Below the pieces are notes generated by a model. That model made no database searches and had not been told where the DNA came from. It worked only from the letters and a program-made list of their open reading frames with translations. Positions 9,274-62,400 of a stretch of 64,000 bases of DNA are shown here, in pieces. A program made the translations under genes and the position numbers. The stretch's first letter is position 1. Each line of letters starts with the position of its first letter. The DNA is from Candidatus Moraniibacteriota bacterium (GTDB lineage: Bacteria > Patescibacteriota > Minisyncoccia > Moranbacterales > GCA-2747515): contig CP175956.1 of NCBI GenBank assembly GCA_046116545.1, positions 77,219 to 141,218 of the forward strand, given 5' to 3'.

Positions 9274-9490
9274 GTCTTTGCGAACAGAAGTGATGCTTAC
9301 TGTGTTATGTGAAGCAATCTCAAAAGTTTATAAATAATCTAACCGAGATTGCTTCGTCGTACCTCCTCCACCCAGGTGGTCCATCTACTACGCTTTAAAT
9401 TCAGAATAGTCGCTATACAGCTCCTTTCTTCATTTATCTTGAACAGAGTTCAATTTATTATGCCCTTGTGGTACACCTTGACGCAATGAC
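9274..9490. repeat. Palindromic element family A, long variant. It has unit I (gtctttgcgaaca...gtgaagcaatctc) and unit II (gagattgcttcgtcgtacctcctccacccaggtggtcc...), and extends to cttgaacagagttcaatt...caccttgacgcaatgac.
   Basis: Two-stem imperfect palindrome. gaagcaatctc pairs with gagattgcttc, and gtctttgcga pairs with tcgcaaagac. The sequence recurs at 12 or more further sites. Confidence 0.8.
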
Positions 9491-12141: not shown

Positions 12142-12229
12142 GAGATTGCTTCGTCGTACCTCCTCGCAAAGACGATATCTAGTCATTGCGAACAGAACCA
12201 AAATCATCTGTGACCTGTGAAGCAATCTC
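12142..12229. repeat. Palindromic element family A (unit II then unit I, opposite order to 9274)
   Basis: gagattgcttcgtcgtacctcctcgcaaagac ... gtcattgcgaacagaacc...gtgaagcaatctc. Confidence 0.8.
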
Positions 12230-12236
12230 GATCATT

Positions 12237-12539
12237 TTATCCATTTTCTATCATTTTACCATATAAATCAACCCACTCAATATTACTATTTTCAATCAAT
12301 GCAATTTTATTTTTACGCGAACCACTTTTTATTTGTTTTTCTCTAGAAATTGCAGACTCAATTGATGGACATACTTCATAATGTACTAACTTATGCAAAT
12401 TATATCTTTGAGTAAATCCCCTTACAATATTATTTTTGTGTTCCCAAATTCGTTTTTGCAAATTAGTAGTAACTCCAACGTACAAAGTACCATCTTTTTT
12501 ATTCGTTAAAATATACACGCACGAAATTTTTTCATTCAT
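12237..12539 (-). CDS. GIY-YIG domain nuclease family protein (UPF0213-like)
   Basis: Motifs VYILTNKKDGTLYVGVTTNLQKRIWEHK and RPW-like. It is flanked on both sides by family-A repeats. Confidence 0.75.
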   Translation of the reverse strand: MNEKISCVYILTNKKDGTLYVGVTTNLQKRIWEHKNNIVRGFTQRYNLHKLVHYEVCPSIESAISREKQIKSGSRKNKIALIENSNIEWVDLYGKMIENG

Positions 12540-12575
12540 AATTTTGTCATATAATAAATCTCATGTCTTCATCTC

Positions 12576-12680
12576 GTCTTTGCGAGCAACTGTGACTTTT
12601 ATTATGTCTAGCGAAGCAATCTCCACCAGGTTTATTAATATACTCACTAAGATTGCTTCGTCGTACCTCCTCGCAATGAC
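12576..12680. repeat. Palindromic element family A. Its unit II overlaps the 3' end and supplies the stop codon of the GT4 gene.
   Basis: gtctttgcgagcaactgtgac...gcgaagcaatctc / ctaagattgcttcgtcgtacctcctcgcaatgac. On the minus strand, unit II reads ...V S L R G G T T K Q S stop. Confidence 0.8.
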
Positions 12681-15377: not shown

Positions 15378-15543
15378 GTCATTGCGAACAGAGCCCACAT
15401 CATTTGTAACATGTGAAGCAATCTCATTACAATATCTATGTCTTTGCGAACAGAGCCCATGTTCATTATGACATGTGAAGCAATCTCATTGGGTTTATTA
15501 GTTCACTTACTGAGATTGCTTCGTCGTACCTCCTCGCAAAGAC
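15378..15543. repeat. Palindromic element family A. Two tandem unit-I copies are followed by unit II.
   Basis: gtcattgcgaacagagcccacatcatttgtaacatgtgaagcaatctc, then gtctttgcgaacagagcccatgttcattatgacatgtgaagcaatctc, then gagattgcttcgtcgtacctcctcgcaaagac. Confidence 0.8.
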
Positions 15544-15590
15544 GATAGCCTGTGGATAAACTTGAACAGTTATAGAATTATATCCAACCA

Positions 15591-15632
15591 AAACCACCCC
15601 TCAGTCCCCTCCTTAAAAAGGAGGGGAGGTAA
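15591..15632. repeat. Hairpin element family B, part 1 (accacccctcagtcccctccttaaaaaggaggggagg)
   Basis: Near-identical copies lie at 41471..41510 and 45381..45420. A variant lies at 19851..19880. Confidence 0.7.
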
Positions 15633-15635
15633 AAA

Positions 15636-15672
15636 CTAAACTAAACTAAACTAAACTAAACTAAACTAAACA
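15636..15672. repeat. Pentanucleotide microsatellite (ctaaa), about 7 copies
   Basis: Direct tandem ctaaactaaactaaa..., read from the sequence. Confidence 0.85.
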
Positions 15673-15850: not shown

Positions 15851-15905
15851 GCCTCTCCCCTTTTTTAAAGGGGGAGATGTCCTAAGGACAGAGGGGGTTC
15901 CACGC
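15851..15905. repeat. Hairpin element family B, part 2 (ctctcccctttttt aaagggggagatgtcctaaggacagagggggtt)
   Basis: Copies lie at 19931..19980 and 41373..41420. Confidence 0.7.
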
Positions 15906-16929: not shown

Positions 16930-17043
16930 TCTAGCTTTTTTAATTTCTTAAATTCTTAACTAAATACTAACATACCAAATACACAGATTCAACTCTAAGT
17001 TGTATAAGTGCTCCCAAATTTCAGTCTTTGCGAGCAACTGTGC

Positions 17044-17186
17044 CATTTCATACGTCCTGCGAAGCAATCTCGTCAAAATATTTATGTCATTGCGAACAGA
17101 AACCACATCATTTGTAACATGTGAAGCAATCTCCGTAGGTTTATTAATGCACCCACTAAGATTGCTTCGTCGTACCTCCTCGCAAA
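17044..17186. repeat. Palindromic element family A. Two unit-I variants are followed by unit II.
   Basis: gtctttgcgagcaactgtgccatttcatacgtcctgcgaagcaatctc ... gtcattgcgaacagaaaccacatcatttgtaacatgtgaagcaatctc ... ctaagattgcttcgtcgtacctcctcgcaaaaac. Confidence 0.8.
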
Positions 17187-17238
17187 AACAAAATACTTTA
17201 TTGCCTCTCCTTGTAAAGACGTTGTTTTTTAAATGTTT

Positions 17239-19842: not shown

Positions 19843-19850
19843 TAACCACC

Positions 19851-19980
19851 ACTCAATCACCTCCTTTAAAAGGAGGTGAGATAAAAACTAAACTAAACAG
19901 AATTAAAGTTAAGTTAAATTAATCATACTATCCTCTCCCCTTTTTAAGGGGGAGATGTCCGAAGGACAGAGGGGGTTTTG
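19851..19980. repeat. Hairpin element family B (part 1 variant + ctaaa x2 + part 2)
   Basis: tcacctcctttaaaaggaggtga ... ctctcccctttttaagggggagatgtccgaaggacagagggggtt. Confidence 0.7.
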
Positions 19981-22467: not shown

Positions 22468-22540
22468 AATAATACCTACCAACTCATCGCCATTGCTAGG
22501 AAGTACAACGAAGCAATCTCAATAATAAACTCCAGCATTC

Positions 22541-23539: not shown

Positions 23540-23622
23540 AATTTTCCTATCATATTACCTGTCTTTGCGAGGAGCGTTTAGCGACGTGGCAATCTCGACA
23601 ATAATACCACTAAACTCTCTAA

Positions 23623-24765: not shown

Positions 24766-24820
24766 TTATTTATAGTCACTAAAAATATATCTATATCCAA
24801 TAATACTACAATCAACTCCA

Positions 24821-24926
24821 CGAAGCAATCTCAAAAAGAACACTCCTCTGTCTTTGCGTCAAGGTGAATTGAGCTCTGCTCAAGAGAGGGACCACCTGGG
24901 TGGAGGAGGTACGACGAAGCAATCTC
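24821..24926. repeat. Palindromic element family A, long variant (intergenic)
   Basis: cgaagcaatctc ... gtctttgcgtcaaggtgaattgagctctgctcaagagagggaccacctgggtggaggaggtacgacgaagcaatctc. ORF 24854..25048 is a read-through of this element. Confidence 0.8.
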
Positions 24927-24933
24927 CACAAGA

Positions 24934-26346
24934 CTATACAAAACAACTCTCCTTATCAAATCCCTTTCTCTCCCCTCTACCACTCTGTTCAATGAAAAAT
25001 GCATCATCCTTTTTATACGTATGCTCACCATGTCGCACACGGATATAATTATATCTATGTGTCGAATAAGCAGAATCACCATTCTCAATGATACGCCCCA
25101 CTAACTCAGCATCAATTGACTTTTTTATACTGGCAAACTTATATTTTTTCATGTCATCTGTTCGTATCAATATAGTTCCACCAGGCAGATGTGACCACCA
25201 ACGATCCTCCGCCTGCTCTCCAAACTCTATCATGACATCACTTTGCTCCAGATACGTAAAATTACCAGTCTTACCCACAATAGTAGCTTGTGAATAATGC
25301 AAGGCAAGATAGATATCATCTAAATGATTTGGACCATAATAATCATCATCATCCATTTTTGTAATATAATCTCCTGTGGCATTATCAACTCCAATATTTA
25401 AATTGTCTCCAAAAATTGTTAATGCATCTTTTTGTATAATCCTCACATCATAAGCCAAGTTCAATGTTTTAGATTTTATTTCATCAACATCAAACTCATC
25501 TCCATGCAATATCAAAATCAATTCTTTATTTGGATAATTTTGCAAAGAAATATTTTCAAATAATTGATTAATGTTCTCTGGACGCATAGTCGAAACAATG
25601 ATTGAAATTTTTTCCAACTTCTTTTTTTCAGACATGTTTATTTGTCCAAACTCAGTCATAACATATCGCCTCAAAACAATACTAAGTTTTTCTCTATAAA
25701 ACAAATCTTCACACTTCATTACAAATTCATCGGCATCATCATATGAACCAATGAAATTCATATATTCTTTTGGTATATATTTTTCCAAAGATGCTTTATC
25801 TCCCACTATCAAAGGCGCTCCCATTGCCATCAATTTCAATACACACCTAGTATAAGCATATTTTGTCTCAAATAATTCATCATCACAAATAACTACACTA
25901 CATAACTTCAATTTTTCTTTATCATATTTATCAGAAAAATCAACAAAATATTTTTTAATTTCGCTATAATTACTAAAATGCTTATCAAAAATACCTGTTT
26001 TAAATAAACTTTTCAGTTTCTTATTATTTCGCCTCTCCCCCACAATACAAATTTTTTCATTAGGATTATTTTGCCAATTGATTGGATTGTATTTCAATAT
26101 ATCTACAATACATTTGGCATTCTTCACATCATTTTCATCACACCCGCACATCTCATCAATTTTCTTACTACCATTTGCTACAAATATCAATTCTTTATTT
26201 TTATTTTCAAATAATATTTTACAGCAATTAACTGGCAGAGTAATGATTTTTACAGAACTTTTTACAGAACGAAAAAATAGCGCCTTTAGCCGCTCTTTTT
26301 TCGTTTCAAAAGTTAAAATATTTTCGATAATATTTAGATTTTTCAT
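24934..26346 (-). CDS. Two-domain protein with a C-terminal GT2-like glycosyltransferase domain
   Basis: C-terminal half has SIIVSTMRPENINQLFENISLQNY...LILHGDEFD and a DDD motif. Confidence 0.5.
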   Translation of the reverse strand: MKNLNIIENILTFETKKERLKALFFRSVKSSVKIITLPVNCCKILFENKNKELIFVANGSKKIDEMCGCDENDVKNAKCIVDILKYNPINWQNNPNEKICIVGERRNNKKLKSLFKTGIFDKHFSNYSEIKKYFVDFSDKYDKEKLKLCSVVICDDELFETKYAYTRCVLKLMAMGAPLIVGDKASLEKYIPKEYMNFIGSYDDADEFVMKCEDLFYREKLSIVLRRYVMTEFGQINMSEKKKLEKISIIVSTMRPENINQLFENISLQNYPNKELILILHGDEFDVDEIKSKTLNLAYDVRIIQKDALTIFGDNLNIGVDNATGDYITKMDDDDYYGPNHLDDIYLALHYSQATIVGKTGNFTYLEQSDVMIEFGEQAEDRWWSHLPGGTILIRTDDMKKYKFASIKKSIDAELVGRIIENGDSAYSTHRYNYIRVRHGEHTYKKDDAFFIEQSGRGERKGFDKESCFV

Positions 26347-33482: not shown

Positions 33483-34283
33483 TTATTTATTTATAAATAC
33501 TCTATTACTTACAATATACCCATTTAATAACATCGTTTCTTTGTTATTATATTTAATTGTACTATTCTGCATATCACAAACATATCCACCCGCTTCCTGT
33601 ATAATGATATCACTTGCGCAAATATCCCACAAGCCACTTTTATTACTTGAATTAATATACAATTCTGCATCACCTACTGCAACTTTACATATTTTAATAC
33701 CAGCTGAACCCATAGGAGCCTGTTTCATATTATTTTTCTCTGCAATTTCTTGTTCATAATCTCCCAAGTGATTTCGACTTACTAGAATTCTGCCATTTTT
33801 CATTGGTTTTTTGCTAGTTGAAATTCTTTTAGGAAGATTCCTGCCTTCGTAGGAATGACAATAGAAAAATGCGCCTTTATTTTTCTCGGCATAATATAAT
33901 TCATTTAATACTGGTGCATACACTATACCAAAAATTGACTCACCCTCCTTATTTACTAATCCAATCATTATTGAAAATTCTCCTGTTTTTTGTATGAAAT
34001 CAGATGTCCCATCTAGTGGATCAATAATCCACACAAAGTTTGCTTTTTTTCTATTTTCAAAATCATCCTCAATCTCTTCACTTAATATTGGATAATTATA
34101 TCTTGATAATTTATCCATCAAAAAATTATTCACTGCAATATCTGCCTCCGTTACAGGTGTTTTGTTTTGTTTTTGTTCTATGGTGTATTCTTTATCATAA
34201 AACTGCATGGCGATGTTACCTGCTTCAATTGCTATTTTTATTATTTCTTGGATATTTATATTGTAATTTTGCATGATTATCAT
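33483..34283 (-). CDS. cysQ: Inositol monophosphatase family protein, probably 3'(2'),5'-bisphosphate nucleotidase (CysQ-like PAP phosphatase)
   Basis: Motifs EEIEDDF...WIIDPLDGTSDF, IVYAPVLNELYYA and GSAGIKICKVAVGDAELY. Genomic context is cysC and a sulfotransferase. Confidence 0.7.
   Translation of the reverse strand: MIIMQNYNINIQEIIKIAIEAGNIAMQFYDKEYTIEQKQNKTPVTEADIAVNNFLMDKLSRYNYPILSEEIEDDFENRKKANFVWIIDPLDGTSDFIQKTGEFSIMIGLVNKEGESIFGIVYAPVLNELYYAEKNKGAFFYCHSYEGRNLPKRISTSKKPMKNGRILVSRNHLGDYEQEIAEKNNMKQAPMGSAGIKICKVAVGDAELYINSSNKSGLWDICASDIIIQEAGGYVCDMQNSTIKYNNKETMLLNGYIVSNRVFINK
33836..33860. repeat. Family-D hairpin (gattcctgccttcgtaggaatgaca) embedded in-frame in the cysQ-like CDS
   Basis: Differs by 1 nt from the copy at 45483..45508 downstream of another gene. 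Encodes HSYEGRN within the CDS. Confidence 0.6.
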
Positions 34284-34902: not shown

Positions 34903-36318
34903 TTATTTTTTGCTCCATTCGTGTTCAATGCGCATTATTCCTACTCCAGACCCTTTTTGTTTTTTAATTTTGATAATATGATTATTTAGTTCTTTTGTTG
35001 AATTAGAATCCACAATATCATTTTGTCCACTTTTATTTTCAAATAAAACAGCTTTTATATATATTTCCCCCGTGTTAAACATCGTGTTTTTAAAATAAAT
35101 TATAAATACATTTCTATCTTTTTGCCAACTGCAATTAAAATTATCTACATCTGTATTATTACCACACAAAAATACATTTGTTTCATTGTCAAAAATTTGC
35201 ACTGCTTGCACAAGATTATGCTTAATTTTTGAAACTTGCACTTCAATCTCTACAAAAAAATCATCACCCCATGTAATTTCAGTTAATTTATTTCTATCTA
35301 TATCAAAAACCTGTATATCTGTAATTATATTTTCATTTTTCACTTGTCTTTTCATACCACCTCTTAGTGATTTCTCATGTTCCTGCTCTTCTTTTTCAAT
35401 CCGTTCCTTTTTTTCTAATTCTTCACGTTGGTCTTCAGACATATTTTTAATAATATATTCATCACATACATCATTCACATCACCAGAACCAAGTAATTCA
35501 CCCTTATGTAATAATAAAGCTCTATCACAATATTCTCGCACTGTTGCCATACTGTGGGTTACTAATATTACAGTTTTTCCCCTCTCTTTATATCCTCTGA
35601 AAATATCAAGACACTTCTCTTGAAATCTACTATCCCCCACAGCCAATACCTCATCCATAATAAGTATTTCACGATCTGCATGAATTGACACACTGAAAGC
35701 GAGACGAGCCTTCATGCCACTTGAATAATTTTTTAATTGTTCGTCTATAAATTTTTCTAATTCTGCAAATGCGACTATTTCATCAAACTTTTCATCAATT
35801 TGTTTTTTTGTTAAACCTAGTACTGTCGCATTGAGATATATATTGTCTCGTCCTGATAATTCTGGATTAAAACCTATTCCTAGCTCAAGGAATGGTGATA
35901 TCATACCATTTACCTCAATTGATCCAGATGTTGGTTGATAAACACCTGCTAAAATCTTTAACAATGTAGACTTACCTGCCCCATTATGTCCTATAATTCC
36001 CAAAAATTCTCCTTTTTTTACTTCTACTGAAATATCTTTGAGAGCGTAGAATTCTTCATATGTATTTTTTTTCAAAGAATTCACAAAAGCACTTTTCATT
36101 GAATCAATTTTTTTGTGAGGAATTTTAAAGATTTTTGAGACGTTTTTTACTTTTACTGCTATTTCTTTATCTGGCTGAGATTGCTTCGTCGTACCTTCTC
36201 CACCCAGGTGGTCCCTCTCTTGAACAGAGTTCAATTCACCTTGACGCAAAGATGCATCTTTTTTTACTTTGATGCTTTTATCTTTTTTATTTGATTGTTG
36301 GTTATTTTTTTTATTCAT
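34903..36318 (-). CDS. wzt: ABC transporter ATP-binding protein of the Wzt/TagH/KpsT polysaccharide-export type, with a C-terminal substrate-binding (Wzt_C-like) domain. It carries an in-frame 84-nt family-A insertion near the N-terminus.
   Basis: Walker A GHNGAGKST, signature YSSGMKARLAF and Walker B ILIMDEVLAVGD. An extra ~180-aa beta-rich C-terminal domain is present. The N-terminal leader contains SLRQGELNSVQERDHLGGEGTTKQSQP, encoded by repeat A. Confidence 0.8.
   Translation of the reverse strand: MNKKNNQQSNKKDKSIKVKKDASLRQGELNSVQERDHLGGEGTTKQSQPDKEIAVKVKNVSKIFKIPHKKIDSMKSAFVNSLKKNTYEEFYALKDISVEVKKGEFLGIIGHNGAGKSTLLKILAGVYQPTSGSIEVNGMISPFLELGIGFNPELSGRDNIYLNATVLGLTKKQIDEKFDEIVAFAELEKFIDEQLKNYSSGMKARLAFSVSIHADREILIMDEVLAVGDSRFQEKCLDIFRGYKERGKTVILVTHSMATVREYCDRALLLHKGELLGSGDVNDVCDEYIIKNMSEDQREELEKKERIEKEEQEHEKSLRGGMKRQVKNENIITDIQVFDIDRNKLTEITWGDDFFVEIEVQVSKIKHNLVQAVQIFDNETNVFLCGNNTDVDNFNCSWQKDRNVFIIYFKNTMFNTGEIYIKAVLFENKSGQNDIVDSNSTKELNNHIIKIKKQKGSGVGIMRIEHEWSKK
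36177..36251. repeat. Palindromic element family A, long unit II, inserted in-frame in wzt
   Basis: gagattgcttcgtcgtaccttctccacccaggtggtccctctcttgaacagagttcaattcaccttgacgcaaagat. This is the reverse complement of the intergenic copy at 24850..24926. Confidence 0.85.
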
Positions 36319-36328
36319 TGCTTTATAA

Positions 36329-37156
36329 TTATATCTTTTCTGCTACATTTGTGATTAATTTCCTGTATGCCCAAATACTAAATATGAAAAATGCAATAAT
36401 TACACTTATAAACATTGCTATTTGACTCAAATCTGGATAATGATTGTTAAACATTGATTCTTTTGTGAAATGGATGATAAATGCCACTGGATTCAGAAGA
36501 ATAAACTTATGTGTCCACACTGGTAACATTGTCAATGGATATAGAATTGGCAATATATAAAACATAACTCTCAATGCAACTTGCCAGATCATTGCCACAT
36601 CACGAAGATACAAAAGTAATGGCGCTGTAATAAGTGAAAATGACAATATTAGTATATATAACGCTACTGCAAAAGTAATTGAAAGTATGATAGATGCAAT
36701 AGACGGCATAAATTGAAATCCTATGAAAAATGCAATGATGACAATTATATTCATCAGAAATACCATCCCTGTATTTATAGTTGATGCCAGAATAATTGAC
36801 CACCTTGGTACATAAATTTTTGTTACTAATTGTGCTTTACTCTTAAGCGCATTCATACCCGCATTAGTTCCTTCTGAAAAAAATGTAAAAAGCATCAATG
36901 CAACTAGTAATTGCAAAGAATAATTTTCTATTCCACCACCACGAGCACCTGTACCAAACACACCGGAAAAAACAGCTGCCAAAACCAAAAACAAAAGAAG
37001 TGGCTGTAATACCGCCCATACATAACCCAAAACAGATCCTTGATAACGAAGTTTAAAATCCGTTTTAGCAAGCATCCAGATTAGCTCTTTATAATTTTCG
37101 TGTTCTTGTAGTGATTCTTTAATTATTTTCATAAATAAATAGTACAATAAAAACAC
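36329..37156 (-). CDS. wzm: ABC-2 type transporter permease (Wzm/TagG-like)
   Basis: 275 aa with 6 TM helices. Sits immediately upstream of the Wzt ATPase, with overlapping or adjacent arrangement. Confidence 0.75.
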   Translation of the reverse strand: MFLLYYLFMKIIKESLQEHENYKELIWMLAKTDFKLRYQGSVLGYVWAVLQPLLLFLVLAAVFSGVFGTGARGGGIENYSLQLLVALMLFTFFSEGTNAGMNALKSKAQLVTKIYVPRWSIILASTINTGMVFLMNIIVIIAFFIGFQFMPSIASIILSITFAVALYILILSFSLITAPLLLYLRDVAMIWQVALRVMFYILPILYPLTMLPVWTHKFILLNPVAFIIHFTKESMFNNHYPDLSQIAMFISVIIAFFIFSIWAYRKLITNVAEKI

Positions 37157-37226: not shown

Positions 37227-37640
37227 TTACTTTGGCACATAGTATGATACTCCTTCATACCTCCATTCTGTTGTAGGATATGTTGCAATAATATGATCCT
37301 TTTCACTTTCTGAAACTGTGAAAAAATGTGCCTTATTACGTGATGAATAAAATCTATATACTGGTTTATTACCTGCTGCAACTGTTGGCACATAGTATGA
37401 TATACCTTCATATCTCCATTCTGTTGTAGGATATGTTGCAATAATATGATCCTTTTCACTTTCTGAAACTGTGAAAAAATGTGCCTTATTACGTGATGAA
37501 TAAAATCTATATACTGGTTTATTACCTGATGCAGATGTTGGCACATAGTATGATATTCCTTCATATCTCCATTCTGTTGTAGGATATGTTGCAATTATAT
37601 GATTCTTTTCACTTTCTGAAACTGTGAAAAAATGGGCCTT
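37227..37640 (-). repeat. Three near-identical 126-bp tandem coding repeats
   Basis: Visible DNA periodicity. The alternate-frame ORF 37181..37594 is an artefact. Confidence 0.85.
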
Positions 37641-40600
37641 ATTACGTGCTGAGTAAAATCTATATACAGCTTGTTTTTCTTGTCTATCTGCATTCTCTTC
37701 TTCTATACCGTCTACATCAAAACTTATTGGAAAATCTGTATCATTTGTATTTCCTGATTCTTCTGTACACCTTATATAATAATTGTACGTATTTCCGTCT
37801 GATAATCCTGTTATATCATGTCCATGATCCTCGCCTCCTGTAACATTTGTCATTGCTGACATATCTGCATAAACTGTATTTAGAGCATCAGAATATCTAC
37901 ATGTTGCATTTTCCCATGTATTTAAATATATTTCTACACTAGTTGTTCCACTTGGTTGTGTCCCATCTGGGCTACCATCAAATCTATCTGGCATTGTATT
38001 ATCTACTTCAAAAGAAGTAACACTTAATACATTACTGGTATTTGCAGAACCATCTGTCACACTAATTGTACAATTACTATGAGTTCCCTCCGATAAAAAA
38101 TTAAAAGTAATTGTGTTATTTCCAACAGTCGCTGTACTTGTAACACTAGAGCAATCACCTCCATAAGTAATAGTTCCTACTTCATCTGTGTTGAATGTAT
38201 AGTCTGGTGTATTATTATTTGTTGGAGTTGATACTGGTGTCACTTCCGTTACTATAGGCGCTACCACATCGCTAATTGATTCATCTTTTATTTTTGATAC
38301 AAAAATATCATAACATCCATATGATGTTAAAGTATTTCCAGTCATATTAATTGTATCTTTAAATCTTCCAACTAAATATCCTTTCCCATAGTCATTAAAA
38401 GCCATTGCTTCACCTGTGTCAGTGCTTGTATTGCCCCAAGACTCTAATGAACTAGCATCTCCAGTTACAACATCTAATATTCCATAAAATATATCATAAC
38501 CACCAGCAGAACTCACGGGCAATGCGTCTGCATATAATGTTCCATAAAATCCACCTGTTATATATATGTTATTATCATTTACTTTAATGTCTGTACTATT
38601 CGTTGATGACGCGTTAGTCCAATGCTTCATCCAATCTACATCTCCATCAGTATTCAATCTTGCAATATATATATTATCATTACTGATTCCTGCTAAGGCT
38701 TGTCCAAATACATCTGCATTATTTTGAAACGTGCCTGATGTATACACATTTCCACTATCATCTATATCAATTGTATATCCATAATCACGAGCATACTCTG
38801 CACTACCACCTCCCTGTTTGGACCATACACTATCTCCATTTACATCTAATTTTGCCAAAAATATATCATATCCTCCAGTTCCACCACCTTCCGTAAATAC
38901 ATTCCCAAAAATATTTGCAACATCACTAAAATAACCGGTAACAAATACATTTCCATTTGTGTCTGTGACAATATCATTGCCTTTATCTAGGCTAGAGCCA
39001 CCCGATCTTTTTGCCCAAATATTATTTCCATCACTATCTATCTTTGCTACAAAAATATCATCACTACCAGCTGATACTAGAGATACTCCTAAAATATCAG
39101 TAGTCCCCGCAAATGAACCAGTTATGTACAAATCATCATTATCATCTATATATATCGATTTAGGATATTCTGTACTTGTACCACCAAAATTATATGCCCA
39201 AATCACATTACCATCATTATCTAATTTTGAAAGATAACCATCATAACTTCCGTTTGATGTTAAATCTATTCCAAAAATATTTGCATCATTACTAAAATAG
39301 CCTGTTAGATATAAATTACCCATGCTATCAATTTCAATAGATGGACTAGTTACATAACCAGTACCGTAAGCATGTTTTGTCCAAACAGAATTCCCATCTA
39401 AATCCAACTTTGTAATGAACGTATCCCACGGTCCATCTGCCACTAAATTTGTACCAAATATATCAGCATCTGTGTTAATAATTCCAACAACATAAGCATT
39501 TCCAGAATCATCAATAACAACATCATAAGCACCTTCACTTCCGCCTGAGTACGTATATGAGTTACACAATCCTGCATAATCCCCACCAGCATGTTTTGTC
39601 CACTCTGTAGTTCCAATATTAATATTTTTCATCATCAATTTTGTACCATTTGAACCGTCTGGCATATTATCATTTGATTCAAATGCTATTTTACTTCTGT
39701 CGGGTGAGATTGATGGTGCTCCATCATATCCTGCAAAATTTGTAAGTCTCTCCACAGTACCGCCTGCAACTGGAATTTTATAAATTTGTGCTAAATTTGT
39801 TTCAAAATCACTACTGTAGATTATATAATGACCATATTCTGAAAATACAGCATCTGTCTTGTCACCTGCACCACTTGTAACTTTTGATTTGTCTGTTCCA
39901 TCTGTATTCATAGTCCATATATCCCACATACCTCCATCTAATTTTTGATATAAAATTTTATCTCCTTTTGGTGACCAATTTGGTTGTCTACAATCATCTC
40001 CCGTATCTGTTAGATTTATGTAACTACTACTTCCATCAATTTTATACTTTGTAATAATTCCATCAGTTGGCACATCTACATCATGAGTTTCAAAAACAAC
40101 CCACTGACCATCGTGACTAAATGACGGTTCATATGACATTTTAGCACTCCCGCCTATTCTATCTGTAATTTTAACTTCTGCTCCTGTTGTAGCACTATCA
40201 CCTATACGAAATACTTCATCATGTGGATCTTTAGATGAAGAAAATGTTATTTCATTTCCAACCCATGAACTCCCAGGTAAATTCACATTATCATTTCCAT
40301 CACTCATGAGTTCTGTCACATTTTCTGATGCTATATCATAAATGTATAAATCAGCCGGACCTTCATTATATCCATTTCTCCACCGTGTAAAAAGAATTTT
40401 ACTTCCATCGGGAGAAAAAGCAGGGTTTTGCAAACTACCTGTTAAATTTATATTTAATACTGTCTCCCCATCATTTCTGACTATATAATCCTCGCATCCA
40501 AATCTGTATGCATCTAAATCAAGATTTTTCTTAAGCCAAGAATATCCACTAGAGTTTGCCTGTGAACAAAATTTATCTGTATCTACTCTGTACTCAACTC

Positions 40601-41370: not shown

Positions 41371-41512
41371 ACCTTCTCCCCTTTTTAAAAGGGAAGATGT
41401 CCGATAGGACAGAGAGGGGTTTGTTATAGTAGCTTTTTAATCTTTGTATTATTTAGTTCTTATTTTTACCAAAACCACCCCTCAGTCCCCTCCTTAAAAA
41501 GAAGGGGAGGCT
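41371..41512. repeat. Hairpin element family B (part 2 then part 1)
   Basis: ccttctcccctttttaaaagggaagatgtccgataggacagagaggggtt ... accacccctcagtcccctccttaaaaagaaggggagg. Confidence 0.7.
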
Positions 41513-41920
41513 TTATTTATTTTTCTTTTCTTTGATTGTCAGCCAAATGAACATTATAAGACTAATTATCACAAACATTATACTTGCAAATGTTGATACT
41601 TGCTCTTTTGTATCTAATATCTCTATAAAACTCCCTGAACTTTCAGATGAAATCATAATCCAAATTACTGATATAAAAAAATACCAAAAGGTAAACTTTA
41701 ACCATTTTTTGAATATTTTGTCTGAGATGAAAAATGTAAAAATTGCGGTTATTAATAATCCTAATGACATCCATGCTATCGGATCCACATACCAATTATA
41801 TTCAAAAATTATTTCAAACAAATTATTTTTAATATCTAAATATGCTGCAATATAACTGTACGTAAAAAAAGTTATGGCAATTACTAATACTTCGACTCTT
41901 TTAATATATTTTTTTTTCAT
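41513..41920 (-). CDS. Small integral membrane protein
   Basis: 135 aa with 4 predicted TM helices. Confidence 0.4.
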   Translation of the reverse strand: MKKKYIKRVEVLVIAITFFTYSYIAAYLDIKNNLFEIIFEYNWYVDPIAWMSLGLLITAIFTFFISDKIFKKWLKFTFWYFFISVIWIMISSESSGSFIEILDTKEQVSTFASIMFVIISLIMFIWLTIKEKKNK

Positions 41921-41934
41921 AATTTAATTTAATT

Positions 41935-44900
41935 TTATTTAATTAACTTTTTAAAAATAAACACACTAACAATCATCAAAAATAATAGGAATATTCCAAT
42001 CAAAATATCTTTGATTGATTTTTTGTTTTCGGAATTATTATCATCTTTTATTTCCTTATTTTCATTTTCTACTGTATTGTTTTGAGATTTCTCTACTTCG
42101 GTCGAAATAACGTCCTTTTCATTTGCCACATCATCCCCCAGAGATTGCTTCGTCGTACCTCCTCGCAAAGACTCATTATTAAAAATATTTTCCGTAATAT
42201 TATTTTTTTCGTCATCGTCATCATCATTGTCTTTGTCATCATCTTTATTTTCATTGCTTTCACTACTACTAAATACTGTACTTCCATCATTTCCATCCTC
42301 TAATGTAGTAGTTCCATTGATTTGTGGTACAACTTCATAATCATTACTTCCATCACCATCATAATCAGCTGTGAGTCTTGTAATATTTTCCAATCCAGTT
42401 CTTGGAATTGCAAAACTTACTTTTGTATTTTCTGATGTTGGTAGATTTTCCATTGTTAGATATGAGGTTACTTCTTCTCCTGCCTCCGTGATACTCACTT
42501 CCTCTAATTTGATAGTATATGAACCTGTATTATAACCATCCAACTCCACGATTATATCACTACCACCCCATCCTACAAATTTATGTTCTCCAAATACATC
42601 GTAATAACTATTTGGCATATTTTCTTCTATAATTTGATTTCCATTTTCATCTATTATGGGTCCTGTGTGATTTCCTTGATTGTCGTATAAATGAATGTCT
42701 AGTGGTGAATATAATGCCATTCTAAGTCTTTTTGCACTGTGTTTACTATGCTTTATTGCGTCAGTGTCATCTGGTCTATTTTTCGTGATATAATCAGACA
42801 ATTCTTCTTGAATTTCATGTTTACTGATGATATTTGAGATTAAATTTCGTAACGACTTAACTTCTAAAATATCTTTGTGCTTTCTATCTTTCGCAAAACC
42901 CTTATTTTCTTCATACATATCCAAAAAATATTTCTCAACATTCTCAGATTCTGACATCATAAGTGAACTTGGTGTTACTACAACATTATCTCCATCTACT
43001 GTATATTTTGGTATATATGATTCTACTGTTACATCTTTGCATTTCGTTCTTTTTATTCCTTCTTTTGTTACTTTATCTTCACATTCTACTTTTGTGATAC
43101 TTTCATAATCTATTTCACTTATTGTATCAAGCCCCCAGCCTCCTATTTGTATTAGATTTACATTTTCTGGTGGTGTCCAGTTATTTAACTCTTCGTGCAA
43201 TTCTTTATTTTCATCAAATAATTTCTCATTTAATATATTTGCTCTTTTTGTATCATTCTTATTTGGTTTGTGTCTATTATCTTTTTTTGCCAATAGAAAA
43301 TCCTTGAATTCATCATAACTATTTATTGTATCTCCATATGCTTTTTTGTATTTCTTGTATTCTGATTTTTCTGATTTAAAATTTATTATTGGTTTATCTA
43401 TTCTTCTGAAATATTCTTCTGTTGGTAAAAGTCCATAAGCAGATGGCATATTTCGTACTACCTCCCTAGCTTCTGCGTCACTGATAACTGAATTTAATTC
43501 TATTTTTTCATCAAATCCATACAACATTGTCAAGATTGCCTTTGATGTTCCCATTTGTGGTGAACTTACCATGACAATATTATCAACTTTATCTGTCATG
43601 TTCAATATTTCAAGTTGTTGCATTATGGATTTTGCTAGTAATCCACCATTTGAATGAGCTACAATTGTAACTTTTCCACTAACTGATGAGTCAGATAATC
43701 TCATCACTTCACTTATTGGATTTTTTATAGAACTCATTTCATAATTTGTTCCATTTATTGCAATATCGTCTACACTTTTTCTCCAATCATATGCATATAA
43801 AGAATAATCATTTATTATTCTATCATCTTTTAAGTTTTTTAAATCTCCAAAAAATCTTTTGTAAATATTTGGAGCTAATACACTAGGAAGTCCTGCTTCA
43901 TAAATTGGCTCTTCAGTGAAAATATCATTTATACTATTTCCATCTTCATCTAATAATATATTTTTGTAATCATCTCCACCTGGAGTAGGTGGCCATACTT
44001 GATTTGTACCGTCATATAATCTGCTAGCTTTTGCACCTGGTAAAAACAATACATTTGATGCAAAATCCGATGATCCTCTCCAATCGTATTCTAATACATT
44101 TGTATCTCCGCTTACTTTTTCACCTGCTGCTAATATTGCATAATCGTCTCCATTTTCATTAACAAAGTTACCTGTTGGACCGTTTGTATGTCCGTACCAA
44201 TTATTTTCTAAAATAACCTTGCTACTGTCATGAGTCATTGCATCATTTTCACATGTTTCACAACATGCATCATAAATAGCATCATTTTGATTATTGTTAT
44301 ATTCATCATCACAGTTATCATAACAAATATCTTCTCCTTCAAAGTCATAAACTACAACATTTGAAATTACTGCTATATTTTGTCCACTTTCTTCAAAATT
44401 AGAATTTTTAATATGTACATAACTATTTTCATTGTAATCTTCTTCAAGTTCCATCTCTACTTGAATATCTGCATACTTGCTATTTTTGAAAATAACATTT
44501 TCCATATCTAATTGTCCTGACATATGTAGTATTGCTGGTGCTTTTCGAATAGCTTCTTCATCTGCATAAACATTATTTGTTATGATGTCATGTATTGCTA
44601 TCCCTGGACAATGTAATTCATTGTAATCAAAATATTCTCCCAATCCATCAAATTCTACAAATTTAAAAAATGATGGTTCAAATATATAACCATCAATTTC
44701 ATACGTATCAAATTTAAATGCTGAAACTCCACCTAAATCACACTGCTCATCAAACTCATTTCCTTCATTAAATGGAGTTTTTGTAAAAACTATTTTATTA
44801 TCAATATCGCCAACTGCAACAATACGTCCAGCATCTTGTACTACGATATGCTTTATTGATATATGTGATCCAGCTTCAATAGTTACTGTTGCACCATCAA

Positions 44901-45090
44901 TGATATATACCGCACCATACTCACTCAAATCTGTATCACTGTTCCATGTTACATCTGTAGTAATATATAAGTCATCACCATACCAAGCGTTTATATATTT
45001 GTGTATATATAAAAAATCAAATCGCAATGGTGCGAGAATGATTATTAGGATTAGAATTGTATTGATCGACTTTAAGATAAAGTTTTTCAT
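41935..45090 (-). CDS. Large secreted alpha/beta-hydrolase (lipase/esterase, LCAT/PGAP1-like) with an acidic low-complexity region, an in-frame family-A insertion and a C-terminal TM anchor
   Basis: Signal/TM N-terminus. Nucleophile-elbow-like VTIVAHSNGGLLAKS. Acidic tract DDDKDNDDDDDEKNN. Insertion NESLRGGTTKQSLGDD. C-terminal TM ILIGIFLLFLMIVSVFIF. Confidence 0.55.
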   Translation of the reverse strand: MKNFILKSINTILILIIILAPLRFDFLYIHKYINAWYGDDLYITTDVTWNSDTDLSEYGAVYIIDGATVTIEAGSHISIKHIVVQDAGRIVAVGDIDNKIVFTKTPFNEGNEFDEQCDLGGVSAFKFDTYEIDGYIFEPSFFKFVEFDGLGEYFDYNELHCPGIAIHDIITNNVYADEEAIRKAPAILHMSGQLDMENVIFKNSKYADIQVEMELEEDYNENSYVHIKNSNFEESGQNIAVISNVVVYDFEGEDICYDNCDDEYNNNQNDAIYDACCETCENDAMTHDSSKVILENNWYGHTNGPTGNFVNENGDDYAILAAGEKVSGDTNVLEYDWRGSSDFASNVLFLPGAKASRLYDGTNQVWPPTPGGDDYKNILLDEDGNSINDIFTEEPIYEAGLPSVLAPNIYKRFFGDLKNLKDDRIINDYSLYAYDWRKSVDDIAINGTNYEMSSIKNPISEVMRLSDSSVSGKVTIVAHSNGGLLAKSIMQQLEILNMTDKVDNIVMVSSPQMGTSKAILTMLYGFDEKIELNSVISDAEAREVVRNMPSAYGLLPTEEYFRRIDKPIINFKSEKSEYKKYKKAYGDTINSYDEFKDFLLAKKDNRHKPNKNDTKRANILNEKLFDENKELHEELNNWTPPENVNLIQIGGWGLDTISEIDYESITKVECEDKVTKEGIKRTKCKDVTVESYIPKYTVDGDNVVVTPSSLMMSESENVEKYFLDMYEENKGFAKDRKHKDILEVKSLRNLISNIISKHEIQEELSDYITKNRPDDTDAIKHSKHSAKRLRMALYSPLDIHLYDNQGNHTGPIIDENGNQIIEENMPNSYYDVFGEHKFVGWGGSDIIVELDGYNTGSYTIKLEEVSITEAGEEVTSYLTMENLPTSENTKVSFAIPRTGLENITRLTADYDGDGSNDYEVVPQINGTTTLEDGNDGSTVFSSSESNENKDDDKDNDDDDDEKNNITENIFNNESLRGGTTKQSLGDDVANEKDVISTEVEKSQNNTVENENKEIKDDNNSENKKSIKDILIGIFLLFLMIVSVFIFKKLIK
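42141..42172. repeat. Palindromic element family A, unit II, inserted in-frame (encodes SLRGGTTKQS)
   Basis: gagattgcttcgtcgtacctcctcgcaaagac. Exact match to intergenic copies. Confidence 0.85.
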
Positions 45091-45183
45091 GTCTTTATTT
45101 TAGCATGCTTTATTTGTTGTGGTCTAGTTTTTTTGATATATAAACCATTTCTAACTAACGAGCACTACTCATTGTAGTGGCGT

Positions 45184-45241
45184 GGCCTTGTGCCCGCCAT
45201 GTAGATCTAATGCGAGGACAGCCACAAGGGCATGTCCCTAC
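45184..45241. repeat. Family C, degenerate copy
   Basis: ggccttgtgcccg...gacagccacaagggcatgtccctac. Confidence 0.5.
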
Positions 45242-45273
45242 AAAAAATAGATGTCACTCTTAAATGGCGAATC

Positions 45274-45321
45274 GAGATTGCTTCACATATCACAAATAAT
45301 GTCACTTCAGTTCGCAAAGAC
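45274..45321. repeat. Palindromic element family A, unit I in reverse orientation
   Basis: gagattgcttcacatatcacaaataatgtcacttcagttcgcaaagac. Confidence 0.75.
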
Positions 45322-45380
45322 GCTACACAAATGATACTGATTTTTCATTTAAAATTTGTTTTATACTTACGTTATATACA

Positions 45381-45420
45381 AAAACACCTCTCAGTCCCCT
45401 CCTTAAAAAGGATGGGAGGT
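45381..45420. repeat. Hairpin element family B, part 1
   Basis: aaaacacctctcagtcccctccttaaaaaggatgggagg. Confidence 0.7.
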
Positions 45421-45482
45421 TATTAAACTTACACAAAATAGATATTACATAATATTATAGGATTTTCTCAAACTTTTCGAAA

Positions 45483-45508
45483 GATTCCTGCCTTCGCAGG
45501 AATGACAT
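45483..45508. repeat. Family-D hairpin immediately downstream of the GT gene (terminator-like)
   Basis: gattcctgccttcgcaggaatgaca. Confidence 0.6.
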
Positions 45509-45514
45509 TGATTT

Positions 45515-46714
45515 TTATTTTAACTTACTTTTTAAATACTCATAATATTCCGCATTCTTTGTATTTTGTGTTGTATATTCTTTTATTGTTTTTTGATATG
45601 CTTTTTGTCCCATTTTGATTCTTAGATCTTTATTTTCTATTAACTGTGCTAGTTTGTCTGTCCATTCTTCTGAGTTTTTTGCTGTGAATCCATCCACTCC
45701 ATCTTCAATAGCATCTTGATATGTTTGATTGTCTATTGCTATTGTTGGAACTTTTACTATTCCTGCCTCAAAAAACTTTAATTCTGACTTTGCTTCACAA
45801 AATGGATTATTATATTCTAATGGCGCAAGATTAATATCACATTGTGCTATATTTGCAAAATGTTTACTACGCTTCACGTAGGGTAATTGTTTAATTCTAT
45901 CTCCAAACTTTTTCACTAAATCATTTTCAACATCCAATGGACCGACTAATAATAACTCTACATTTTTATACTTTTCCATTATTGTCATCAATGGTTCTGT
46001 GATTGTTGCAAAATCTTTGTTGTGGCTTATTGTTCCACTGAAGTAGCCTAGTTTTACTATATCCTCTCGAGATTGCTTCGTCGTCGTACCTCCTCCTCGC
46101 AATGACAATAAAGCTTTTTTTGCACCATCAATATCTTTTTTTGATAATTTATTTTGTACTATGAAAACTTCTTTATTTTCTTGTCTTAATTTGTTTGCAA
46201 GAAATTTTGTGGTTGTGGTTGCGACTTTCACATATTCATCTTTTAATATTTCTCCACCCACTCCATTTTCATAAAGCTTCTTTTCCAGACTATTCATTTT
46301 TTTATAATAATCCATATGTTCTAAATATTTTGGATCATATACCAAATCATCTGTTTCAAAAATGATTATCTTATTTTGTTTTTTTATTTCTTCTACTAGC
46401 TTTGCTATTTTTTTTGTATTTAAAGTTCTATGAAAAATAAATATTGAAAATTTATTTACATAACTAACTAGTCTTGGATTATCTTGTACTGTAACTGAGC
46501 ATTTGAATCCATTAAATTCTAATTCTTCGGCTATATGAGTTGTCCTGTGTAACGCACTATCACCTACTCCACCTGAAATAAATAAAATGTCTCCACTGCC
46601 AACCTTGCGAAATAATGCAAAGAACGCACTTAAAACACGTTTTGAACCATTGATGAGTCCATCTCGTTTTATTACTTGCCACGACTTTCCTATTTTAATT
46701 AAGAATGTATTCAT
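45515..46714 (-). CDS. GT-B fold glycosyltransferase (GT1/GT4-like) with an in-frame family-A insertion in the inter-domain linker
   Basis: C-terminal Rossmann domain with an E-x7-E-like segment (CEAKSELKFFEAGIVKVPTIA). Linker contains LSLRGGGTTTKQSRED. Confidence 0.55.
   Translation of the reverse strand: MNTFLIKIGKSWQVIKRDGLINGSKRVLSAFFALFRKVGSGDILFISGGVGDSALHRTTHIAEELEFNGFKCSVTVQDNPRLVSYVNKFSIFIFHRTLNTKKIAKLVEEIKKQNKIIIFETDDLVYDPKYLEHMDYYKKMNSLEKKLYENGVGGEILKDEYVKVATTTTKFLANKLRQENKEVFIVQNKLSKKDIDGAKKALLSLRGGGTTTKQSREDIVKLGYFSGTISHNKDFATITEPLMTIMEKYKNVELLLVGPLDVENDLVKKFGDRIKQLPYVKRSKHFANIAQCDINLAPLEYNNPFCEAKSELKFFEAGIVKVPTIAIDNQTYQDAIEDGVDGFTAKNSEEWTDKLAQLIENKDLRIKMGQKAYQKTIKEYTTQNTKNAEYYEYLKSKLK
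46068..46106. repeat. Palindromic element family A, unit II, with internal triplet duplications, inserted in-frame
   Basis: gagattgcttcgtcgtcgtacctcctcctcgcaatgac. The tcg and cct triplets are duplicated relative to the canonical unit. Confidence 0.85.
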
Positions 46715-46738: not shown

Positions 46739-47989
46739 CTACTTATAAAGTATATTTGCTATATTCCTATAATCAATATAATTAACATTATCAATTTTAT
46801 TTAATTGATTTAGGCTGAGCACAAACATTTCTTTCTTTTTATTATTTTTCCCTTCAAAACCTCGTAATACACGAGAATCAATTTGTTTTTTTAGACTTTT
46901 GTATTTAACTTCAACAAGTTTAATTGTTTTTGCACGATCTACAATGAAATCAATTTCAGATTTTGATATCGTTCTATAAAAGAATATTTTATTTTTCACA
47001 TCACTACTTAATTCCAAAAATACAAAATTTTCAAATAACATTCCATTATCTTGCCTATCCTCAATTTCCAAAAAATTGTTCAATATTGCATTACGTAGAC
47101 CTAAATCAGAAAAATATATTTTTGGCATCTTTATAATTTCTTTTCTAATATTATTTTGAAAAGAGCTTACTTTATTCAAAATGAATGTGTATTCCAATAG
47201 CTCTATATATTTTTCAACATTTCTTCTAGAAATATCAGCTGTATTTGATAATTCTGAAATATTCAACAAATTACCAATTTGAGATGCTAATAATTTAATA
47301 ATTATATTAAATTGTGAGATATTATCAATTCTTCCTATGTAACGAATATCTTTATTTATATAAGTATTTACATATTCATACAGCATTTTTTGTTTCAATG
47401 CAAAATCAGACTGCAATACGACAGCGGGCATGCCTCCATATATCAAATATTCATTCAAGTCATTATCAAATTTATTCTTTACTTCATTTGGAATTTCTTT
47501 TTTATCTAAATATTTTATATATTCAACTTGTTTGAATTGTAAAAACTCCTCGAAACAAAGTGGATTTACCAAAAAAGAAACTTTTCTACCCACCAAAGAG
47601 TCCTGTAACTGAGCTTTCAATTCTAAACTTGAAGAACCCGTTGTGATTATTTTTAATTGATCAGAATATTTATCATACAAATGTTTTAAAAAATTTGATG
47701 GATTATCTAAATATTGTATCTCATCTATAAAAAAATAATTTTTCTGACTATCCTTTGTTATATATTTTAATAAATTTTCCGGATCATTATTTAAATCTTC
47801 TAAAATATTTATTTCTTCCAAATTTAAATAAAATATATTATCCTCAGACACTTGTTGTTCTAAGAGTCTCTTTCTTATTAACTTCAACAAAGACGTTTTA
47901 CCCACCTGTCTGGGACCATTTAAAATAATTATTTCTTTCTCAAATAACCATTTATCAATATCTTCTTGTATTTTTCGTGAAAACAACAT
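46739..47989 (-). CDS. AAA-family ATPase with a C-terminal DUF4143-like domain
   Basis: Walker A ILNGPRQVGKTSLLK. Walker B-like FFIDEIQ. About 416 aa, matching the AAA_14+DUF4143 architecture. Confidence 0.65.
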   Translation of the reverse strand: MLFSRKIQEDIDKWLFEKEIIILNGPRQVGKTSLLKLIRKRLLEQQVSEDNIFYLNLEEINILEDLNNDPENLLKYITKDSQKNYFFIDEIQYLDNPSNFLKHLYDKYSDQLKIITTGSSSLELKAQLQDSLVGRKVSFLVNPLCFEEFLQFKQVEYIKYLDKKEIPNEVKNKFDNDLNEYLIYGGMPAVVLQSDFALKQKMLYEYVNTYINKDIRYIGRIDNISQFNIIIKLLASQIGNLLNISELSNTADISRRNVEKYIELLEYTFILNKVSSFQNNIRKEIIKMPKIYFSDLGLRNAILNNFLEIEDRQDNGMLFENFVFLELSSDVKNKIFFYRTISKSEIDFIVDRAKTIKLVEVKYKSLKKQIDSRVLRGFEGKNNKKKEMFVLSLNQLNKIDNVNYIDYRNIANILYK

Positions 47990-59827: not shown

Positions 59828-59947
59828 GTCTTTGCGAGCATTGCCATAACATATGTAATAAGCGAAGCAATCTCGTTTAATTTTTTAATATTCTAATTGA
59901 GATTACTTCGCCTTGTGGTAATAAATATCCCAATTGCTCGCAAAGAC
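59828..59947. repeat. Palindromic element family A, complete unit I + loop + unit II
   Basis: gtctttgcgagcattgccataacatatgtaataagcgaagcaatctc ... gagattacttcgccttgtggtaataaatatcccaattgctcgcaaagac. Confidence 0.8.
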
Positions 59948-62372: not shown

Positions 62373-62400
62373 TTGTCATTCCTGCGTAGGCAGGAATCTT
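62373..62400. repeat. Family-D hairpin (gtcattcctgcgtaggcaggaatc) in the grpE-dnaK spacer
   Basis: Read from the sequence. A related tggaatgacaa lies at 62490..62510. Confidence 0.5.

Follow-up and report, generated by a model that had tools for sequence, protein, structure and literature searches.

An in-frame unit of a dispersed non-coding repeat in the N-terminal leader of a Wzt-type ATPase from Candidatus Moraniibacteriota, a likely tolerated passenger

Among described bacterial repeats, the closest to the one reported here are the repetitive extragenic palindromes (REPs) of the CGTC-tagged superfamily, which carry an unpaired CGTC or TGTC (or CCTC) head, an 8-9 bp stem opening with AT and a loop of 4-5 nt (PMC3733652). 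They occur mostly as head-to-head dimers and rarely tail to tail, include intragenic copies and have no dedicated transposase, and the literature leaves open how they spread without one (PMC3733652). The superfamily has four defined families, is reported in Bacteroidetes and includes dRS3 of Neisseria and the Rickettsia palindromic elements (RPEs) RPE-4 and RPE-6; different REPs have been noted at one site of orthologous recB genes, and many N-terminal 'intragenic' REPs reflect mis-assigned start codons (PMC3733652). Bacterial miniature inverted-repeat transposable elements (MITEs) can also overlap open reading frames (ORFs), as does Coxiella QMITE1 (PMC5896051). Here we describe a dispersed repeat, family A, in a 64,000-nt stretch of a Candidatus Moraniibacteriota genome (contig CP175956.1, positions 77,219 to 141,218; hereafter the window), a bacterium of the Candidate Phyla Radiation (CPR). 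We focus on a 77-nt unit that lies in frame inside wzt, the gene for a polysaccharide ABC-transporter ATPase. This segment is most probably the solo arm of a non-coding repeat resembling REPs and bacterial interspersed mosaic elements (BIMEs), carried in frame as a tolerated passenger of the Wzt leader.

The source record of the 471-aa Wzt protein is a metagenome-assembled genome (MAG) with a 1.29-Mb contig. Its N-terminus, read from ORF 34903-36318 (-), is MNKKNNQQSNKKDKSIKVKKDASLRQGELNSVQERDHLGGEGTTKQSQPDKEIAVKVKNVSKIF, which matches exactly the translation (...KKDASLRQGELNSVQERDHLGGEGTTKQSQPDKEIAVKVKNVSKIF) given in an earlier note on this DNA. That note had taken the leader segment to be the reverse complement of an intergenic long variant at 24850-24926, and the pairwise alignment bears this out: the reverse complement of 36177-36253 shares 73 of 77 bases with the intergenic copy, ungapped, where a match at this level is expected about 0.01 times by chance. 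Repeat finding paired the two copies over 83 nt at 93%, and three copies of the 18-mer GGGACCACCTGGGTGGAG from the centre of the unit are present in the window, where shuffles predict 0.01. The first base of the unit falls on codon phase 2 of wzt, and the unit encodes residues 23-47 (SLRQGELNSVQERDHLGGEGTTKQS) within a K/Q/N/S-rich, hydrophilic leader. The element had been given a length of 84 nt and the interval 36177-36251; the unit measures 77 nt, and the shorter interval drops its first two bases. The wzt copy has a degenerate head (GCATC), carries AGAAGG where the family has AGGAGG, and has no inverted partner unit within wzt, so that it stands as a solo arm.

The protein shows the marks of a Wzt/TagH-type polysaccharide ABC ATPase, namely the ABC_tran motifs, an adjacent ABC-2 permease gene and a C-terminal Wzt_C-type domain. 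Walker A (residue 110), the Q-loop (144), the signature YSSGM (198), Walker B (218) and the H-loop (253) are all present. In an AlphaFold model built on an input alignment of 60 sequences (mean predicted local distance difference test score, pLDDT, 82.5), residues 1-47 score below 50 and have no secondary structure, the first strand begins at residue 53, and the ATPase and C-terminal beta-sandwich domains mostly exceed 90. Model and motifs together suggest a 52-residue disordered leader followed by the ATPase domain and the beta-sandwich domain. The unit lies ahead of the conserved ATPase core, as had been proposed, and the intact motifs and confidently modeled domains are consistent with the proposal that Wzt function is probably retained despite it.

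Family-A units were called by pairing heads (GTCWTTGCG) with tails (GAAGCAATCTC), and the fixed ends of the family read GTCWTTGCG ... CGAAGCAATCTC. The window contains about 22 units, of which about 18 are intergenic, so the placement of the Wzt segment in a dispersed repeat family holds. The tail 13-mer ACGAAGCAATCTC is found 24 times at up to two mismatches, compared with 0.9 expected. Unit heads in the window are CGTC, TGTC or AGTC, and the units have 49-55% GC in a window of 32% GC. Between the fixed ends the interior varies from 10 to 120 nt. The family includes a 32-nt form (GTCTTTGCGAGGAGGTACGACGAAGCAATCTC) with 35-38-nt derivatives, a 48-nt form with identical ends and a variable 24-nt core, a 77-nt long form (24850, +, and 36177, -), and a 146-nt form that equals the long form with two more internal insertions. 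The long form consists of GTCTTTGCG, 45 nt and AGGAGGTACGACGAAGCAATCTC, with the 45 nt inserted between GCG and AGGAGG of the short form. This module holds two small hairpins, TTGAAC-TCT-GTTCAA and CCACC-TG-GGTGG, the first of which (TTGARC-TCT-GYTCAA) differs from the copy at 24874-24888 by one compensatory G-C to A-T change. The unit brings along neither a start nor a stop codon; of the six frames, three are open in the long form and all are open in the short T-form. It also contains a perfect Shine-Dalgarno-like AGGAGGT.

Single units have little structure of their own. The best fold, at -1.7 kcal/mol, pairs ATTGC with GCAAT in a 5-bp stem enclosing 16 nt, and the 32-, 48- and 77-nt units are no more stable than shuffled sequence, either as DNA or as RNA (z +0.4 to +1.4). 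The common A-form has ATTGC...GCAAT; in many units of the window, the wzt copy among them, the sequence is TTTGC and the first pair is lost. The leader region of wzt likewise folds no better than shuffles, and a structured RNA or DNA element in wzt was rejected on this ground. In contrast to the single units, the intergenic composites form long hairpins (z = -6.1 and -4.0; -6.1 for 15435-15548). In these, a spacer of about 23 nt separates one or two 48-nt units from an inverted 32-nt unit, and the arrangement is tail to tail, at 9274-9490, 12576-12680, 15378-15543, 17024-17189 and 59828-59947. No described RNA family accounts for the repeat, as the whole window gave no Rfam match at gathering score. 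In the array region and the wzt leader, matches at E up to 1 were at chance level (E 0.18-0.67) and belonged to unrelated eukaryotic families. Readings as hammerhead, attC, CRISPR repeat or K-turn were dropped by eye; the conserved ends lack the core motifs (CUGANGA/GAAA, GTTRRRY), and the array spacers are identical or missing.

Four family-A units lie inside ORFs of the window, all on the sense strand and all in the frame S-L-R-G-G-T-T-K-Q-S: in the leader of Wzt, a linker, a low-complexity tail and a C-terminus (Table 1). The linker unit belongs to a family 4 glycosyltransferase (GT4) and falls between the two Rossmann halves, the Pfam domain starting at residue 224. The C-terminal unit, in another GT4, doubles as the right arm of the composite 12576-12680. 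A canonical CGTC-type REP of a sister family, TGTCATTCCTGCG.AGGCAGGAATCT, occurs at 33834-33860, 45481-45507 and 62374-62400; its copy in the CysQ-like gene has an 8-bp stem with one mismatch and a 4-nt loop.

Table 1. Coordinates of the wzt locus, repeat units and arrays (window positions unless a locus is named).
Feature	Coordinates	Strand	Remarks
wzt	34903..36318	-	polysaccharide ABC-transporter ATPase, 471 aa; own match PF00005, orthologs match PF14524 Wzt_C
77-nt long-variant family-A unit	36177..36253	-	inside wzt ORF
45-nt (15-codon) internal module	36200..36244	-	separates long from short variant
wzm	36329..37156	-	ABC-2 permease (PF01061); stop codon 10 nt upstream of wzt ATG
Intergenic long-variant unit	24850..24926	+	reference copy of the earlier note
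Solo tail ACGAAGCAATCTC	24820-24832		17 nt upstream of the intergenic long unit
Degenerate or sub-family unit	22486-22520		near the intergenic long unit
36-nt-subfamily unit GTCTTTGCGAGGAGCGTTTAGCGACGTGGCAATCTC	23561-23596		same subfamily as the unit in the L126 wzt leader
146-nt extended long variant	9345..9490	-	tail-to-tail with 48-nt unit 9274-9321 (+)
Composite: two 48-nt units (+), 24-nt spacer, inverted 32-nt unit	15378..15543	+	intergenic, one long hairpin
Second intergenic composite	17024..17189	+	identical architecture
32-nt unit, in-frame SLRGGTTKQS	42141..42172	-	low-complexity C-terminal part of 1051-aa PGAP1-like ORF 41935-45090
38-nt unit, in-frame SLRGGGTTTKQS	46069..46106	-	inter-domain linker of GT4 45515-46714
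32-nt unit, last 10 codons (SLRGGTTKQS)	12649..12680	-	end of GT4 12647-13831; last base starts TAG stop
Sister-family canonical CGTC-type REP TGTCATTCCTACGAAGGCAGGAATCTT	33834..33860	-	in-frame CHSYEGRNL in CysQ-like gene 33483-34283
Mosaic intergenic arrays	9274-9490, 12142-12680, 15378-15543, 17024-17189, 45091-45514		
Head-only tandem sites, other genomes	L015 5124-5217, L076 6360-6434, L085 502-583, L100 7521-7580, L115 5850-5923		

The same unit read in the same frame also accounts for ORF 24854-25048 (+), as the earlier note had stated: this ORF starts at an in-frame TTG of the intergenic unit and reads MRQGELSSAQERDHLGGGGTTKQS... It is spurious, since it runs antisense into a real family 2 glycosyltransferase (GT2) gene, 24934-26346 (-). 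The further idea that the element behaves as a ready-made open reading frame goes too far, because the unit has neither start nor stop. Only about one of 135 copies in other genomes lies clearly inside a long ORF.

We compared the wzt leader with orthologous sites. Typical Wzt orthologs begin M-x(2-12)-IAIKVxNVSK and have about 61 residues before Walker A versus 109 in the window protein, and most of them are without the segment encoded by the unit. Close relatives share the start MNKNNNQQSNK, followed by a variable leader in which the peptides derive from different repeats: the long variant of the window, together with RDAINRVST and TSLKEWVEGWS, in P0002; SLRGDTAKKSQ in P0003; SLRGASSDAAIS in P0009; and SPPLKEGIEGWL, PASAGVT and CHSR...GGNL in P0004 and P0010. 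By its sequence, P0045 (MKNNNKKQTVISVKNVSK) looks like an empty site. The 28-aa indel expected against Wzt orthologs is therefore not found in a clean form; the difference between long and short variants is 45 nt (15 codons).

The gene order wzm, wzt, APS kinase, CysQ-like is kept in the relatives, and the tight wzm-wzt junction recurs in L121 and L126, the wzm stop lying 2-10 nt before the wzt ATG in the three genomes. At the same relative site of the wzt leader, the unit is 77 nt long in L121, 32 nt and decayed (28/32) in L122, and a 36-nt subfamily member in L126; L125 retains a decayed relic, and in L124 and L127 the site is free of units. The presence of short, long and relic units at one site implies that a unit has been resident in the wzt leader since before these genomes diverged, which does not agree with the single insertion event assumed earlier. 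A short unit was probably already resident there, as the sequences suggest, and the long state differs by the 45-nt module. As a separate observation, the wzm-wzt junction has gained whole genes in L122 (1495-2491), L124 (1005-3008) and L127 (2528-2887), comprising small ORFs, SLFN_AlbA_2, HATPase_c_4, AAA_14/DUF4143 and 23S_rRNA_IVP genes; a similar AAA_14/DUF4143 gene is found in the window at 46739-47989, adjoining the GT4 with the in-frame unit.

Two other coding sites vary in a similar manner among relatives. The GT4 linker is a segment of variable length across 60 orthologs, most of them without a unit; it holds the 38-nt unit in the window, a short unit in L130 and a long unit in L129, which comes from the same MAG as L121. 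In the loop of the CysQ-like protein, the window has the CGTC REP (CHSYEGRNL), whereas L124 and L126 have family-A units, of 39 nt and in another frame in L124 (CHCEDDQREGEAIS) and of 35 nt in L126 (SLRGAFSDEAIS).

Other dispersed repeats were observed in the window. Four families make up the mosaic spacer 45091-45514 downstream of the GT4: the CGTC REP, GTAG-headed GTAGGGACA...TGTCC hairpins, a CCCCTCCTTAAAAAGGAGGGG family and family A with a 48-nt unit; none of the four is present in the corresponding GT4 spacers of L129 and L130. The family AACCACCCCTCAGTCCCCTCCTTAAAAAGGAGGGGAGG occurs at 15589-15670, 19841-19922, 41470-41551 and 45379-45420, with a CTAAA run after it at one site; read in frame it yields the SPPLKEG.EGW peptides of the relatives' Wzt, GT4 and CysQ orthologs. 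The family CTCCCCTTTTTTAAAGGGGGAGATGTCC.AAGGACAGAGGGGGTT is located at 15855-15899, 19933-19977 and 41376-41420. Tandem repeats of 153 nt (DUF5648 modules) at 18389-18994, 22034-22486 and 37232-37690 are common to three secreted-type proteins, which are SpoIID-like, a subtilase and a 1342-aa GH114/beta-propeller protein.

Beyond this lineage, the 21-mer GGAGGTACGACGAAGCAATCT has exact matches at more than 120 loci in GTDB genomes, chiefly those of Bacteroidota (Pedobacter, Sphingobacterium, Mucilaginibacter, Saprospiraceae) and also Sulfurimonas and a Limiplasma MAG, in some genomes on many contigs. The full unit there is CGTCATTGCGAGGAGGTACGACGAAGCAATCT, and the 48-nt type (GTCATTGCGAACTGAAG...GTGAAGCAATC) is present in Bacteroidota too. 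Judging from the flanks by eye, uncounted, these copies usually lie close behind a stop codon. Among 117 copies from other genomes, 65 have a CGTC and 25 a TGTC head, then AT; 49 have a tail-to-tail partner within 70 nt and 11 a head-to-head partner within 80 nt, the inverted partner lying at a median of 21 nt. In Bacteroidota we also observed two to four head-only copies (CGTCATTGCGAGG plus about 8 nt) in tandem before a full 32-nt unit, a stutter of the 5′ half (Table 1). The short unit had one match in viral contigs. Two metagenome scans for the long form (TTGCGTCAAGGTG-N25-55-GGTACGACGAAGCAAT; GGGTGGAGRAGGTACGACGAAGC) gave no match, and this form is known only from the window (three copies) and one related MAG (L121, L129). 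Covariation evidence is limited to the one compensatory pair because the long form is so rare.

Open spans of at least 200 codons contain only eight of the 135 copies from other genomes, most of these eight within 30 codons of an end, and none of them uses the SLRGG frame. The only copy of another phylum clearly internal to a long ORF is L083 at about 3685-3716, 231 codons from the start of 1130. A universal frame preference of the element was therefore rejected: copies in other phyla are nearly all intergenic, and the few in open spans, like that of the CysQ-like gene of L124, use other frames. Given the number of frames open in the element, the frame bias is better explained by tolerance of the peptide in the Moranbacteria lineage than by the element. 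These results indicate that the capture of units in frame, at permissive sites, characterises this Moranbacteria lineage and does not belong to the element itself. Thus, of the earlier reading, the repeat, its frame and place, the probable retention of function and the spurious ORF stand, while the size, the 28-aa indel, the single event and the ready-made ORF do not.

Compared with the CGTC-tagged REPs and dRS3, family A is similar in its head tag followed by AT, high copy number, position mostly downstream of ORFs, dimers that form larger hairpins and intragenic copies. It differs in having a stem of at most 5 bp around at least 16 nt, no significant fold of its own and a mainly tail-to-tail arrangement; the sister REP at 33834-33860 does have the stem and loop of the superfamily. 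We file family A beside the CGTC-tagged REP superfamily, outside its four defined families. Like the E. coli REP/BIME and the Neisseria intergenic mosaic elements (NIMEs), family A builds mosaics between same-strand genes from two or three types of unit, which alternate in orientation and are set apart by short spacers. Unlike them, it has no GTAG head, no REP-associated tyrosine transposase (RAYT) was seen, and its unit types are shared across phyla rather than confined to one species. With MITEs (PMC5896051) it has in common that a small non-autonomous repeat adds peptide segments to annotated proteins, but MITEs are 150-400 bp long with terminal inverted repeats and direct-repeat footprints, whereas the coding copies here measure 32-77 nt and no flanking direct repeats were recognised.

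The nearest parallel is with the Rickettsia RPEs (PMC3733652). In both cases a short dispersed non-coding repeat lies in frame in apparently functional genes and is absent from orthologs; several genes of a small AT-rich genome are hit at N-termini, C-termini, linkers and loops; and the head is of the CGTC type. In the window, the repeat is elsewhere mostly non-coding, the host ORF is open, repeat-free orthologs exist for Wzt and GT4, and the site lies outside the folded core. The differences are the CPR host, the solo, non-palindromic coding copies of 32-77 nt and the 45-nt module between forms; the parallel is drawn on features and placement. A literature search on CPR and in-frame palindromic repeats found nothing relevant, and the sequence string of the unit returned unrelated primers only. 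The phenomenon itself is known, as repeats of the REP and RPE type survive in frame at permissive sites; here the host lineage, the CPR, is new, and the family is an unusual, modular one shared across phyla.

The events at wzt were probably as follows. The usual place of the family is downstream of genes, where two tail-to-tail units form a long hairpin. One unit probably settled in the variable Wzt leader in the ancestor of a small Moranbacteria group, and in the lineage of the window the resident unit carries the family's 45-nt module. Short unit and module both preserve the frame and leave the ORF open. Translation would start at the conserved ATG and read the unit as 25 hydrophilic residues within a disordered extension. 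For the ATPase it would be neutral, a tolerated passenger. Resident units might be renewed or overwritten from other copies of the family, through ectopic gene conversion or an element-specific enzyme, which would result in both the switches at the same site and the very high identity between genomes.

Several observations weigh against this reading. The wzt unit is 75/77 (97%) identical between the window and L121, compared with about 15 of 21 in the codons just downstream of it (hand count) and about 80% for the DNA of wzm and the wzt ATPase (binomial P ~7e-6); more divergence would be expected of a purely neutral passenger. Nor is the solo unit palindromic, and hence it is not a classical REP. 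Coding solo units have neither terminal inverted repeats nor target-site duplications, and composites have inverted arms. No target-site duplication was recognised by eye, without a systematic search, and the composite flanks extend the palindrome rather than forming direct repeats. No transposase or RAYT was found in the window, that is, no transposase or Y1 domain in ORFs of at least 110 aa in 64 kb of a 1.29-Mb genome. Finally, translation through the unit is inferred from the sequence.

The conservation is also what would be expected if the unit were a functional nucleic-acid signal under selection at the DNA or RNA level, such as a protein-binding or uptake site or a signal for mRNA processing or stability at the wzm-wzt junction, with its translation being incidental. 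We regard this as unlikely; it is compatible with family membership and the in-frame position and differs only in why the unit persists. In its support, the unit is far more conserved than its flanks (70-80%), and differences between coding copies, seen by eye in codon views, mostly change amino acids (G to E, R to S, S to N, A to V), implying that the peptide is not the conserved thing. Identical 32-nt and 48-nt types in Moranbacteria and Bacteroidota, the compensatory pair in the module hairpin and the Shine-Dalgarno-like string point in the same direction. Against it, a single unit has no fold beyond shuffles and no inverted partner in wzt, no credible Rfam match exists, AGGAGG is mutated to AGAAGG in the wzt copy, and the site does not depend on the unit, as copies decay (L122, L125) and are absent from L124, L127 and most orthologs. 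Homogenisation within the genome as the sole cause of conservation was unsupported, because the orthologous wzt copies of two genomes have two differences and two 77-nt copies of the window four. The decay of some copies and the switching of variants at three sites would fit renewal or overwriting better than selection on the wzt site.

If the start of wzt were mis-assigned, the unit would lie in the wzm-wzt spacer or 5′ untranslated region and Wzt would start downstream, as general experience with N-terminal REPs might suggest (PMC3733652) and as the leaderless orthologs P0008, P0011 and P0042 do, starting 3-12 residues before the IAVKV strand. We give this little credence. Between ATG1 (36318), where the conserved MNKKNNQQSNK... 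begins, and codon 74, the sole ATG, GTG or TTG codons are two TTGs within the unit itself, and by codon 74 the first strand and the invariant residues K62 and F64 have already been passed. Moreover, the reading frame stays open over 45-100 extra residues, made of different repeats, in at least eight independent Wzt orthologs. Because no usable start lies downstream, the frame is open in orthologs, the N-terminal peptide (MNKNNNQQSNK in relatives) is conserved and the ATG abuts the wzm stop, a mis-annotation is unlikely, and the unit would be translated as part of Wzt from ATG1. Least credible of all is that selection maintains the 25 residues as a functional module of Wzt in their own right, such as a regulatory or interaction tail. 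The SLRGGTTKQS frame does recur at four window sites and at orthologous sites in relatives, but the same peptide appears in unrelated proteins and in the spurious intergenic ORF, is missing from most orthologs, has a predicted disordered state and is altered between copies (G to E, R to S, S to N), and the CysQ-like gene of L124 uses another frame. A tolerated passenger thus remains our preferred explanation of the Wzt segment. More speculatively, and with doubt, we propose that family A and its sister CGTC-type REPs may be actively renewed in place by a trans-acting system or by efficient short-homology conversion. Such renewal would account for the different variants at the three orthologous coding sites (Wzt leader, GT4 linker and CysQ loop), the 45-nt module at resident units, and the near-identity between genomes, even between Moranbacteria and Bacteroidota.

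The findings extend in-frame repeats of the Rickettsia type to the CPR, where Wzt, two GT4 transferases, a PGAP1-like and a CysQ-like protein carry such segments; the affected proteins are envelope-glycan proteins, and the segments lie at permissive sites. If the unit is translated, peptides of the protein would span KKDASLRQGELNSVQER or GTTKQSQPDKEIAVK, and a start at ATG1 implies N-terminal peptides of Wzt beginning MNKKNN... or including SLRQGELNSVQER. Repeat peptides (SLRGGTTKQS, CHS..GRNL, RDAINRVST, SPPLKEG..) lengthen proteins, create spurious ORFs such as 24854-25048 and can seed false homology between unrelated CPR proteins. Orthologous coding sites offer dated, frame-constrained snapshots of repeat turnover, and if renewal in place is true, the copies in coding linkers would be a tractable record of how transposase-less CGTC REPs propagate.

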